Below, piece by piece: positions 1,739-3,939 of a stretch of 9,877 nucleotides of DNA. The position numbers and the translations under genes are program-made. The stretch's first letter is position 1, and the number at the start of each line of letters is the position of its first letter. The notes under the pieces were generated by a model. The model made no database searches and was not told the origin of the DNA. It worked only from the letters and a program-made list of their open reading frames with translations. Source of the DNA: a virus (lineage: Duplodnaviria; Heunggongvirae; Uroviricota; Caudoviricetes); the IMG/VR virus record IMGVR_UViG_2531839661_000013, positions 1 through 9,877 of that record; one strand, 5' to 3'.

Positions 1739-1945
1739 ATGGAAGCAATCAAAAAAGTCATCTTTCGCCAGGAAGTAAAAAAACTTATCCACATTAAGGC
1801 AGACAGCACGCTGCAAAGCATGATCAACGCCGGAGAATTCCCGCAGGGTTTTCGTGTCGGTTTGCGCCGTCGCGGATGGTATGAGGAAGACGTAATCGCA
1901 TGGATGAAAGAACGCGAACAAGAAGCGCGCGGAACGACCGCTTAA
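1739..1945 (+). CDS. alpA: AlpA-family phage/satellite transcriptional regulator (MerR-like HTH)
   Basis: 68-aa protein with the AlpA pattern: hydrophobic segment plus HTH (VIFRQEVKKLIHIKADSTLQSMINAGEFPQ), then GxRxxGWxEEDVxAWM. RBS GAGG sits 9 nt upstream. Confidence 0.85.
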   Translation: MEAIKKVIFRQEVKKLIHIKADSTLQSMINAGEFPQGFRVGLRRRGWYEEDVIAWMKEREQEARGTTA

Positions 1946-1970
1946 CATATATAGGGCAAATGATGAACAT

Positions 1971-1998
1971 AAAAAAAGCGGCCCCGAAATGGAGCCAC
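1971..1998 (-). terminator. putative intrinsic terminator for the leftward small-gene cluster (weakly bidirectional)
   Basis: On the minus strand: GGCUCC-AUUUC-GGGGCC (6-bp stem with one G-U pair), then GC and a U7 run. Lies between the convergent alpA and the 2067-2270 gene. Confidence 0.4.
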
Positions 1999-2066
1999 CT
2001 TTCTGAACAATTAACCCGCTGCGCCGTATGTGTCAACAATCATAAGCCCGGGCATGATAACCGCGA

Positions 2067-2270
2067 TCAGGCTGGTGGGCAATTATCTTGCTTGTTGGGG
2101 CCGTATTGTGCTGCCATTTTCATCCGTTCAGAACGTGAATATTTTTTTAGAAACTCATCAAGGACAAAAGCGCATGGTGCGAATCTTTCTGATTCATGCT
2201 CGAACGCCATATTTTCGTGCTCTCTGTTCGTTTTTTGCGATGGTGTATTGGTTGATTCTTTGTTGGTCAT
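2067..2270 (-). CDS. hypothetical small protein (67 aa), module-2 partner, paralog of the 2616-2843 product
   Basis: Begins ATGACCAACAA (MTNK...), identical at nucleotide level to the start of ORF 2616-2843. N-terminal pattern P-x-Q-x-T-x-x-E-x-E is shared between the two. Preceded by the conserved leader. Confidence 0.5.
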   Translation of the reverse strand: MTNKESTNTPSQKTNREHENMAFEHESERFAPCAFVLDEFLKKYSRSERMKMAAQYGPNKQDNCPPA

Positions 2271-2323
2271 TGTGTGTACCTGTAAAGCAATGCGCCGGAG
2301 TTCCTCACGCCACGGCGCTGATG
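2260..2323 (-). promoter_or_regulatory. conserved leader / translation-initiation element, copy 2
   Basis: 45-bp core (2279-2323) matches 2852-2896 at 42 of 45 positions. Contains the dyad GCGCCG-N15-CGGCGC. The 11-mer TTGTTGGTCAT (reverse complement ATGACCAACAA) at 2260-2270 is identical in both copies. Confidence 0.55.
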
Positions 2324-2327
2324 TTTT

Positions 2328-2501
2328 TTATCCTTTGGGTTCAATACCGCGTTGCTGTAATTCTTTTCGGAGTACTCGCTTGATCCAGGTGGCTAAAGAA
2401 GTGTCACCGTCTGCTTTCGCTGCCTCTTCAAGTTGTGCTCTGAATTCTTCTGGTAGCCGCATTTGGTATGGAGGCGATCGCTTTTCCAATGGTGTTGACA
2501 T
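2328..2501 (-). CDS. Arc/MetJ-type ribbon-helix-helix DNA-binding protein (57 aa)
   Basis: Hand translation of the minus strand gives MSTPLEKRSPPYQMRLPEEFRAQLEEAAKADGDTSLATWIKRVLRKELQQRGIEPKG. The segment RLPEEFRAQLEEAAKADGDTSLATWIKRVL is a classic RHH beta-strand, helix, turn, helix pattern. AAGGG lies 8 nt before the ATG. Not in the supplied ORF track because it is under the length cutoff. Confidence 0.7.
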   Translation of the reverse strand: MSTPLEKRSPPYQMRLPEEFRAQLEEAAKADGDTSLATWIKRVLRKELQQRGIEPKG

Positions 2502-2541
2502 GGTAATTACCCTTAATTACTATAGTTACATGGTAATTACC
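2502..2541. promoter_or_regulatory. putative operator: two perfect 10-bp palindromes GGTAATTACC
   Basis: GGTAATTACC at 2502-2511 and 2532-2541, 30 bp centre to centre, with a third TAATTAC half-site at 2514-2520. Immediately upstream of the Arc-like gene, overlapping its RBS and a candidate -10 (TATAGT on the minus strand). Confidence 0.5.
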
Positions 2542-2560
2542 ATTGTACTTACCGTTATAC

Positions 2561-2596
2561 AAAAAACAACGCCCCGGAAACGGAATAATCCGTTTC
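2561..2596 (-). terminator. possible terminator/insulator between module 1 and module 2
   Basis: Perfect 8-bp hairpin GAAACGGA-N4-TCCGTTTC (2577-2596), followed on the minus strand by CGGGGCGTTGTTTTTT. The U-run starts about 10 nt after the stem, so this is not a canonical terminator. Confidence 0.3.
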
Positions 2597-2615
2597 ATAG
2601 TTCCGTTTTGTGTAC

Positions 2616-2843
2616 TCATCCTGGCGGGCGATTCTTACGGGACTTTAGCCGCCGTGGGCAGCTTGCTAAAAATGCCTCCAACGCGAATAGTCCTGGTTTC
2701 ATTTCTATCGGTATTAGTTGGATATTCAGAGGATTAGCCAGTTCGGCTTCAAGGCGAGCACAGGTTTCTAACTGCCTTTGCCGAATGATTTCATCTTCTT
2801 GCGTCTGCGTGTCTTGTATTGGTAATAGTGTGTTGTTGGTCAT
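2616..2843 (-). CDS. hypothetical small protein (75 aa), module-1 partner, paralog of the 2067-2270 product
   Basis: Begins ATGACCAACAA (MTNN...). Weak RBS (CAGGG) lies inside the conserved leader. C-terminus is basic (RRLKSRKNRPPG). Confidence 0.5.
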   Translation of the reverse strand: MTNNTLLPIQDTQTQEDEIIRQRQLETCARLEAELANPLNIQLIPIEMKPGLFALEAFLASCPRRLKSRKNRPPG

Positions 2844-2896
2844 GGTACTGCCCTGTAAAGCAATGCGCCGTAGTACCTCACGCCACGGCGCTGATA
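2833..2896 (-). promoter_or_regulatory. conserved leader / translation-initiation element, copy 1
   Basis: Paralogous to 2260-2323 with the same GCGCCG-N15-CGGCGC dyad. Sits between the stop of the RHH gene (2901) and the start of ORF 2616-2843. Confidence 0.55.
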
Positions 2897-2900
2897 GTGA

Positions 2901-3080
2901 TTATTCTGATTCTTTGGCCTTGCGACGCTGGCGGCGTTTGATTTCGCCGCGCATGGCAGTAACGATAAATTGTGCGTCTGTTTCGTTTTCTTCTTTTACC
3001 AAATTCATTTCGCTTAAAACGTCTAGAGGTACTCTAGCAGTTTTTTGTTGTGACTTGTTGTTGGTTGTACCTGTTGGCAT
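2901..3080 (-). CDS. putative ribbon-helix-helix-like DNA-binding protein (59 aa)
   Basis: Internal ATG of the 107-aa track ORF, preceded by a perfect AAGGAG with 7-nt spacer. Product MPTGTTNNKSQQKTARVPLDVLSEMNLVKEENETDAQFIVTAMRGEIKRRQRRKAKESE has an RHH-like strand-helix-helix pattern and a basic tail. The N-terminal extension in the track would run across the operator dyads. Confidence 0.5.
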   Translation of the reverse strand: MPTGTTNNKSQQKTARVPLDVLSEMNLVKEENETDAQFIVTAMRGEIKRRQRRKAKESE

Positions 3081-3103
3081 CTCTGTTCTCCTTACTGTTA
3101 GGT

Positions 3104-3207
3104 GGTGTTCAGTATACGGAGAAAAAAAAATAAAAAAAGACTTGAAGTGCAAGTCACCTAAAAGTAACCTAGATTTCAAGGTGACTTGCACCAAAAAACA
3201 ACGCCCC
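3104..3207. promoter_or_regulatory. divergent control region with 13-bp inverted repeats and an A-tract
   Basis: Inverted repeat GTGCAAGTCACCT (3147-3159) / AGGTGACTTGCAC (3179-3191). Nested hairpin GACTTG-AAGTG-CAAGTC (3139-3155). A9-T-A7 tract at 3122-3138. Candidate leftward -10 TATACT (minus strand, 3111-3116). Shared 15-mer AAAAAACAACGCCCC at 3193-3207. Confidence 0.45.
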
Positions 3208-3264
3208 ACAGTGCTGGAACACATGCAGGGCGTCTAACCACAAACACTATAGAGAGGTAAATTT

Positions 3265-3689: not shown

Positions 3690-3939
3690 AACCACACCGG
3701 ACGCAGCCGCCGAAGCCATCAAAACGCTGATGCACGCGCTGATTGATATTTCTGTTATCGCGGACAGGGCACATAAGCACGCCACCAGCGAAACAGAATA
3801 TGCCGGGGCTTTCGTTCCTCACTCACTGGCTGTTATGCAATTTAGTGCTGATATGGCACTGAATGAGGCTAAAACCATCCTGATTACTGATTGTGAAAAT
3901 GGGGGGGGGTTATGCGTGATGATCGTTTTAATTCCCTGA
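3679..3939 (+). CDS. hypothetical protein (86 aa); reading frame crosses a G9 homopolymer
   Basis: ATG 3679 with RBS GGAGGGG. The C-terminus (ENGGGLCVMIVLIP) is translated through the G9 run at 3901-3909, so its 3' end and length depend on the tract length. Confidence 0.45.
   Translation: MCNKTTPDAAAEAIKTLMHALIDISVIADRAHKHATSETEYAGAFVPHSLAVMQFSADMALNEAKTILITDCENGGGLCVMIVLIP
3901..3909. repeat. G9 homopolymeric tract at a gene junction
   Basis: Nine consecutive G directly seen at 3901-3909. The run serves as the Shine-Dalgarno for the ATG at 3912 and lies inside the 3' end of the preceding ORF. Confidence 0.9.

Follow-up and report, generated by a model that had tools for sequence, protein, structure and literature searches.

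The short hairpin-containing segment that occurs twice in the 9,877-nt stretch of DNA analyzed here (the window) is a genuine feature beyond chance, namely a conserved and apparently undescribed intercistronic element of Escherichia coli PICI satellites, hereafter referred to as the joint. It is conserved among related loci, occupies a fixed position between two cistrons, folds more stably on the sense strand than on the antisense strand, is strictly linked to a downstream cistron, and is flanked by genes that have been reassorted around it. In the window, an operon encoding a ribbon-helix-helix (RHH) regulator and a small protein, termed cargo, occurs as two diverged copies in tandem, and each carries one copy of the joint between its two cistrons. 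Because the entire RHH-joint-cargo module is present in tandem and has diverged, what the first-pass annotation described as a leader present twice represents the best-conserved part of a duplicated two-gene module. Reasoning by analogy with intercistronic hairpins of other operons, we tentatively prefer, as quite possible, the explanation that the joint is an intercistronic mRNA stem-loop combined with a weak translation start, which also acts as a crossover point for the reassortment of regulator and cargo genes.

The window was 99.4% identical to an approximately 10-kb island located beside tRNA-Pro and yejM in E. coli chromosomes. Its genes (integrase, AlpA-type regulator, Icd-like, DUF4222, RepA-type helicase, PerC, and a ClpP/major-capsid fusion) agree with the gene content of published E. 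coli and other Gram-negative PICIs (PMC11773190, PMC6092414), and the window represents a PICI-type phage satellite of E. coli with its insertion point beside tRNA-Pro. Two tandem minus-strand operons lie between alpA and the icd-like operon. Operon B consists, in order, of RHH1, joint B, ORF75, and a terminator-like hairpin with a T run (2572-2585, minus strand, from the window terminator scan); operon A consists of RHH2, joint A, ORF67, and a terminator, a GC hairpin followed by TTTTTTT that was read from the sequence (1969-1999, minus strand). RHH1 (2901-3080, minus strand) is a 59-aa regulator of the YlcI/YnfO family, as indicated by NCBIfam NF041551 (E = 4.7e-17), phrog_949, and the PGAP annotation, and RHH2 (2328-2501, minus strand) is a 57-aa Arc-like or YlcI-like regulator with matches to the phrog_228 Arc-like repressor (E = 4.9e-7) and to NF041551 (E = 4.8e-4, below the curated cut-off). 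The two cargo-family proteins are encoded on the minus strand by ORF67 (2067-2270; phrog_21027) and ORF75 (2616-2843), the latter without RefSeq annotation in the identical island. ORF75 is a conserved coding gene: all 13 distinct alleles were intact, and their variable sites showed a third-position excess (19/20/37 by codon position). ORF67, ORF75, and the other downstream ORFs of relatives have highly variable N-terminal halves and share a P..F.L[ED].F[LV].K core, and therefore belong to one small-protein family, which was found in E. coli only.

Several other elements were observed in the window. Two GGTAATTACC palindromes at the RHH2 start (2498-2544; repeat search) are candidate operators of operon A, distinct from the joint. 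Over 2495-2544, these palindromes also overlap a plus-strand promoter-like site (TTGACA-17-TACTAT, 10/12) aimed at ORF75, joint B, and the icd-like operon; a face-to-face promoter switch with the palindromes as its operators is a candidate arrangement. The minus strand is strongly structured at 3120-3262 (-47.4 kcal/mol, z = -5.4), a stretch that lies upstream of RHH1 and runs antisense to the sequence immediately before the icd-like gene; its two long hairpins both have a U run behind them, and the Rfam search gave a weak SymR-like hit here (E = 0.18). Either a small antisense RNA or two terminators in tandem could account for it. One copy of a direct repeat (6811-6917 and 9348-9454, plus strand; 107 nt, 79%, with almost no differences in the central ~70 nt) comes right behind the PerC gene and the other behind the capsid-fusion gene; the repeat looks like two terminator-like units, each a hairpin with a T run, and contains CCTGGTGGGGTGG. 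A 445-aa plus-strand ORF (1900-3237), antisense to the four small genes and both joints, matched nothing in PHROG or NCBIfam and is probably spurious; on the same strand, PGAP annotates pseudogenes of Icd-like or BRO-N type in relatives.

The repeat search of the window returned a single direct repeat at the joints, pairing 2260-2334 with 2833-2907 (75 nt, 83% identity, spacing 573). The 44-nt core ATCAGCGCCGTGGCGTGAGGAACTCCGGCGCATTGCTTTACAGG, which spans AUCAGCGCC to ACAGG on the minus strand, had its sole matches in the window at 2279-2322 (minus strand, 0 mismatches) and 2852-2895 (minus strand, 2 mismatches), with 0.00 matches in 200 dinucleotide-preserving shuffles, which bears out the claim that the segment is present twice. 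Much of the first-pass description of this segment was confirmed: both core mismatches fall in what had been regarded as a 15-nt loop, the 8 variable nt followed by ATGACCAACAA occur after the core in both copies, the weak Shine-Dalgarno (SD) sequence ACAGG lies inside the conserved block, and the GCGCCG/CGGCGC stem is present in copy A (2313-2318 / 2292-2297) and copy B (2886-2891 / 2865-2870). The start coordinate given there was off by about 1 nt, with AUCAG beginning at 2322 and 2895.

On the minus strand, each copy consists of a stop codon, 9 nt, GCGCCGUGG, a 9-nt loop, CUNCGGCGC, AUUGCUUUACAGG, 8 nt, and AUGACCAACAA, and in both the joint constitutes the 57-nt spacer of a two-gene operon. 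Copy A (2268-2330, minus strand) extends from the stop TAA of RHH2 (2330-2328) to the ATG of ORF67 (2270-2268), and copy B (2841-2903, minus strand) from the stop TAA of RHH1 (2903-2901) to the ATG of ORF75 (2843-2841). Hairpin A (2292-2318, minus strand) is formed by a 5' arm at 2310-2318 (GCGCCGUGG), a loop at 2301-2309, and a 3' arm at 2292-2300 (CUCCGGCGC), with six GC pairs, a bulged upper stem, and a folding energy of -13.7 kcal/mol for a 30-nt segment. Hairpin B (2865-2891, minus strand) has 9 bp, with its 5' arm at 2883-2891, loop at 2874-2882, and 3' arm at 2865-2873. The tail AUUGCUUUACAGG follows on the minus strand at 2279-2291 in copy A, where it is unstructured and U-rich with the weak SD at its end, 8 nt before the AUG, and at 2852-2864 in copy B, where it likewise contains the weak SD.

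The joint was present in 1665/5426 complete E. coli genomes, at 2706 places, with up to 7 per genome. The INPHARED phage collection contained no match to it, a single scan of genome contigs revealed no relatives, and an exact-pattern scan of one genome per species produced 23 chance hits, in unrelated taxa only. The Rfam 15 covariance-model search of the whole window (E<=1) yielded four weak hits, none at 2260-2334 or 2833-2907; a full-text literature search for the joint sequence found unrelated primers only, and a literature search on YlcI/YnfO found nothing relevant. In every inspected context (five annotated regions and the fetched loci), the joint lay within a satellite island. In the five annotated contexts, it directly followed a YlcI/YnfO-type or small hypothetical gene, and the genes upstream of the joint were always RHH regulators of the YlcI/YnfO type. 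When related loci (approximately 240, from IMG/VR; designated by L numbers) were anchored on the joint, column identity was 0.84-0.92 over the core and about 0.4 at more than 40 nt upstream and more than 140 nt downstream, with the conserved block reaching into the last ~10 codons of the regulator. In locus pairs with both flanks <60% identical, that is, essentially unalignable, the 57 nt from stop to ATG were on average 77% identical; the segment is thus better conserved than its flanking codons, and the pattern of conservation that would have refuted the first-pass proposal was not found. Within the joint, an alignment of 27 variants revealed that G15, C16, T19, G21, and G36 are invariant, while the loop flanks and spacer vary. 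The family is young and narrow, and recent spread together with gene conversion, instead of selection acting on the RNA, could account for its high identity.

The arrangement around the joint was markedly modular. Wherever the hairpin was present, exactly 9 nt separated the stop codon from the stem, whichever stop codon or regulator allele was involved. Among 158 distinct regulator 3' contexts, 137 had the hairpin together with a downstream ORF, 18 had neither, and none had the hairpin alone; the other three, which are dubious, showed a downstream ORF without the hairpin. The 18 regulator genes without a hairpin indicate that regulator expression as such does not depend on it, and in this class the regulator gene runs directly into a common 3' region (TAGCCCACCAGC...) that is otherwise found after the cargo gene. 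The hairpin is repeated between successive cargo ORFs in L218 and L005 and is retained where the tail has been replaced (L190, L077, L218b). Upstream and downstream allele types occurred in many combinations, and linkage between segments was minimal across the hairpin. The joint is certainly a module joint.

Further observations were made at these boundaries. In L190, L227, and L077, a 50-aa lipoprotein-like ORF (e.g., MLKLKKHVPMMVALIITIFLLISCF...) with its own strong SD lies ~57-210 nt past the RHH stop, in the cargo slot behind the hairpin; the slot therefore takes unrelated accessory genes. Just after the RHH stop of L262 and L264, GATTAGCGCCGGGCGCCCAG resembles the joint hairpin with its interior deleted and its two arms joined. 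The window carries exact Chi sequences (GCTGGTGG) at 1163, 2071, 5596, 5824, 6615, and 8494 (plus strand) and at 3782, 4600, and 8666 (minus strand), i.e., nine in 9.9 kb versus 0.24 expected from shuffles, with 0/200 shuffles reaching nine. In related loci, the Chi complement CCACCAGC is also found at the shared 3' boundary that follows the cargo genes; it specifies the C-terminal ..PPA* of ORF67, and the ..PPG* end of ORF75-type proteins derives from the 7/8 Chi variant CCACCAGG. These observations suggest a role of RecBCD/Chi in satellite protection or recombination.

RNAfold placed a hairpin in both copies, with 9 bp in copy B and 6 bp plus four pairs across two bulges in copy A. Windows of 81 nt folded no better than shuffles (z of -1.0 and -1.6); the 30-nt hairpin alone gave z = -2.0 for copy A and values down to -6 in relatives. 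Across variants, the stem is GC-rich, comprises 9-11 bp, and has folding energies of -10 to -21 kcal/mol. In the alignment of 27 distinct but closely related variants used for covariation, 92.6% of cells were paired in the 9-bp stem and 87.5% in the 11-bp stem, values reached by 1/500 and 0/500 shuffles, respectively, and pairing dropped to 23-57% when the partner was slid along. Double-sided changes were seen at two pairs of the 9-bp stem (reached by 95/500 shuffles) and at four of the 11-bp stem (25/500), both pairs of the 9-bp stem coming from the single sequence L005b, whose lower stem shows G-C>U-A, C-G>U-A, and G-C>G.U. Support from covariation is modest because the family is young and known so far from E. 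coli only.

The sense hairpin was more stable than the antisense hairpin (mean, -14.7 versus -10.3 kcal/mol) in 25/27 variants; the variants behind this count are not independent, since part of the asymmetry goes back to two G.U pairs of their ancestor. Most stem changes were one-sided C>U or A>G, leaving G.U pairs that are kept in the minus-strand RNA only; such wobble-type changes occur in L210 (three), L162, L163, and L116b, and by a hand count from the alignment ~12/15 independent-looking stem transitions keep pairing via G.U. Pairs are broken in L029 (A.A), L005a (G.A), L049 (U.C), and copy A of the window (U.C). Taken from the sequence alignment, these patterns are moderate evidence that a sense-strand RNA stem-loop has probably been under selection. 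Of the two interpretations first offered for the hairpin, the cis-regulatory RNA survives insofar as sense-strand RNA is the level that best accounts for the hairpin, given the stability asymmetry and the G.U changes; the CGCC-N2-GGCG DNA dyad is not supported, as most relatives read CGCCGTGGTG (GGTG) and the dyad is imperfect.

Intercistronic stem-loops can give the cistrons of one operon different mRNA stability, as exemplified by the REP hairpins of malE/malF and the hairpins of the puf operon. The joint belongs to a known kind of feature and shares with this class a stable sense hairpin between two cistrons of one operon. Like the REP and puf hairpins, it is a stable, GC-rich sense stem-loop located directly after the upstream stop and before the next cistron, and its presence only together with a downstream cistron is a further likeness to stem-loops of this type. 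Unlike REP, it has an unrelated sequence, resides in a satellite island, and is fused to a conserved translation-start tail. By analogy with such stabilizer hairpins, effects of the joint on RNA stability, transcription, translation, and read-through may be envisaged as follows. In the mRNA, its first half would fold into a GC-rich 9-11 bp stem-loop with its base exactly 9 nt past the regulator stop, and its second half (AUUGCUUUACAGG-N8-AUG) would stay open and U-rich, presenting a weak SD for the cargo gene and providing a shared translation-initiation region. The hairpin would most likely separate the two cistrons as a barrier, guarding the mRNA of the regulator against 3' decay or processing and uncoupling it from the cargo cistron, with different expression levels of the two genes as the result. 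Since the joint is the only sequence common to otherwise unrelated regulator and cargo alleles, it would also offer a homologous crossover point, at which genes could be reassorted, duplicated in tandem (as in the window), or lost.

A pure recombination linker, conserved through exchange or homogenization between co-resident satellites, with the hairpin as a relic (e.g., of an old terminator) that has no present RNA function, is somewhat unlikely, though conceivable in so young a family. Regulator and cargo alleles are shuffled around the joint, several copies (up to 7) share a genome, the conserved block extends beyond the spacer into the last ~10 regulator codons, the family is narrow and young, Chi or Chi-like boxes occur at nearby module boundaries, and one lineage (L262) shows an internal hairpin deletion. 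The joint also resembles the module-boundary "linkers" of mosaic lambdoid phages, in which a short conserved stretch at a gene boundary is flanked by non-homologous alleles in many combinations. However, a linker alone explains neither the non-uniform variation within the joint, with its five invariant positions, nor the bias by which stem changes favor wobble compatibility on the sense strand, nor the survival of the hairpin in three lineages in which all sequence 3' of it was exchanged by recombination. Internal structure, strand-specific wobble-compatible changes, and a strict tie to the second cistron likewise set the joint apart from the lambdoid linkers.

It is unlikely that the joint is instead a specific operator, at which an island, helper-phage, or host protein, or a small RNA, would bind the stem-loop and/or the AUUGCUUUACAGG tail to switch cargo translation and tie the cargo to helper infection. 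The loop (GUGAGGWAC in most variants) and the single-stranded tail are conserved in primary sequence to a degree that a hairpin alone would not require, the SD of the cargo gene is weak, and the regulatory region of the island is rich in structured RNA, all consistent with such a site. Nevertheless, the loop is not invariant (UGCGGUGAA, GAGUAA, GAGAGUAA) and does not covary with downstream types, no partner protein or RNA emerged from the analysis, the window repeat search listed no complement to the joint, and the anti-SD complementarity of the loop was no better than that of composition-matched shuffles. CsrA sites were rejected, as the GGA motif is conserved in neither the loop nor the SD. 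Considered as a ribosome standby site, the SD-like loop did no better than composition-matched shuffles and is lost in divergent variants. A pseudoknot between the loop and the pre-AUG spacer was rejected, with 5 bp in copy B only and no covariation across shuffled alleles.

A more ambitious and distinctly unlikely possibility is that Gram-negative PICIs possess, in the joint, a dedicated and hitherto undescribed cis-RNA switch that decides cargo expression and marks the 5' edge of exchangeable cassettes, uniting regulation and shuffling in one 60-nt module. A helper-phage or island factor, or the terminating ribosome, would then act on the stem-loop 9 nt past the repressor stop.

The terminator, DNA-dyad, ops, and antisense-RNA readings were poorly supported. 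As a leaky intrinsic terminator or attenuator, the joint would end some transcripts after the regulator gene and leave cargo expression to read-through only, which we consider quite improbable. A GC-rich hairpin does stand right after the stop codon, followed by AUUGCUUU with five U in 8 nt, and variants of the tail tend toward a higher U or A content (AUCGUUUU, AUUAUUUU, AUUGUUUU). Of the characteristics of Rho-independent terminators, the joint thus has the GC-rich stem-loop but lacks an uninterrupted U tract directly 3' of the stem: the tract is broken in AUUGCUUU, the commonest allele has AUUGCUAUG, four lineages (L190, L077, L218b, L210) have the hairpin without a U tract, and the window scan called neither copy. 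A co-oriented SD and AUG within 20 nt downstream also argue against termination at this site.

A DNA-level signal, either the dyad operator CGCC-N2-GGCG or an ops-like non-template hairpin recruiting an RfaH/NusG-type factor to the elongating polymerase, is very improbable. On the non-template strand, CGCCGTGGCGTG of the window matches ops (GGCGGTAGCGTG) at 9/12 positions; the likeness to ops/JUMPStart extends to a possible GT-loop mini-hairpin and a weak SD downstream, in keeping with cargo genes that have weak SDs. Moreover, a possible C:G pair stands in place of the G4.A7 pair of ops, the window has the pause-type G-10/T-1/G+1, and L005a carries GCGGTAGCGT, identical to ops positions 2-11. 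Against this, ops (GGCGGTAGnnTG) has essential G4, G5, A7, and G8, and the window differs at core positions 4 and 7, with C at 4 and G at 7; G4C alone abolishes RfaH recruitment in vitro, as does A7T (PMC5995543). In CFT073, RfaH binding is confined to 8 ops sites, each of them in a 5' leader, and ops-like sites that lie downstream of translated genes are passed over (PMC9765446). The joint site is not in a 5' leader but follows a translated RHH gene, 9 nt past its stop, and such islands are not part of the published RfaH regulon (PMC5995543, PMC9765446). In addition, dyad position 9 is T in most relatives and ops position 12 is A in many, and a 12-nt signal leaves the conserved complementary 3' arm 15 nt away unexplained.

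An antisense RNA target or gene resembling P22 sar in the arc-ant spacer, with a plus-strand transcript covering the cargo ribosome-binding site, is scarcely credible: the layout is that of the immI arc-ant region (an Arc-type RHH repressor gene, a ~60-nt spacer, and a second gene in the regulatory region of a mobile element), and the plus-strand hairpin of copy A is followed by TGATGTTTTTTAT, but the window scan found no plus-strand promoter-like site inside ORF67 (2067-2270) or ORF75 (2616-2843), the plus-strand T run occurs only behind EPKG-type regulators of one allele class, the plus-strand hairpin is the weaker one in 25/27 variants, and, unlike arc-ant/sar, the joint has no antisense promoter, conserved antisense terminator, or Rfam sar match and is followed by genes for small proteins, not Ant. 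Other candidates were rejected. An integron attC site would carry GTTRRRY or RYYYAAC, which occur in neither copy on either strand; this class needs IntI, and PGAP annotates the integrase of the island, which lies beside tRNA-Pro, only as an "integrase domain-containing protein." A stop-codon read-through fusion would fit the window, where both copies of the joint form an open frame continuous with the cargo ATG, but several relatives carry in-frame stops (TAG in L029 and L005a, TAA in L200, TGA in L239). A leader mini-ORF (UUG...UGA overlapping the AUG) has no conserved start, and by inspection a lambda-type nut site (boxB plus boxA) has the wrong order and loop, with UGCUUUA only vaguely boxA-like.

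The quiescence of Gram-negative PICIs is unsettled, and whether they possess any global repressor has been described as unclear (PMC6092414). The region described here holds candidate repressors, the RHH genes, as well as a slot for small, fast-evolving accessory genes. An element of 60 nt that occurs in about one-third of complete E. coli genomes, is absent from Rfam, and always lies at the repressor-to-cargo junction provides a concrete handle on both: it could be mutated to probe the balance between repressor and cargo expression and used as an anchor to catalogue cargo genes. Even if the joint were a recombination linker only, it would still explain how the modules of these satellites are reassorted.
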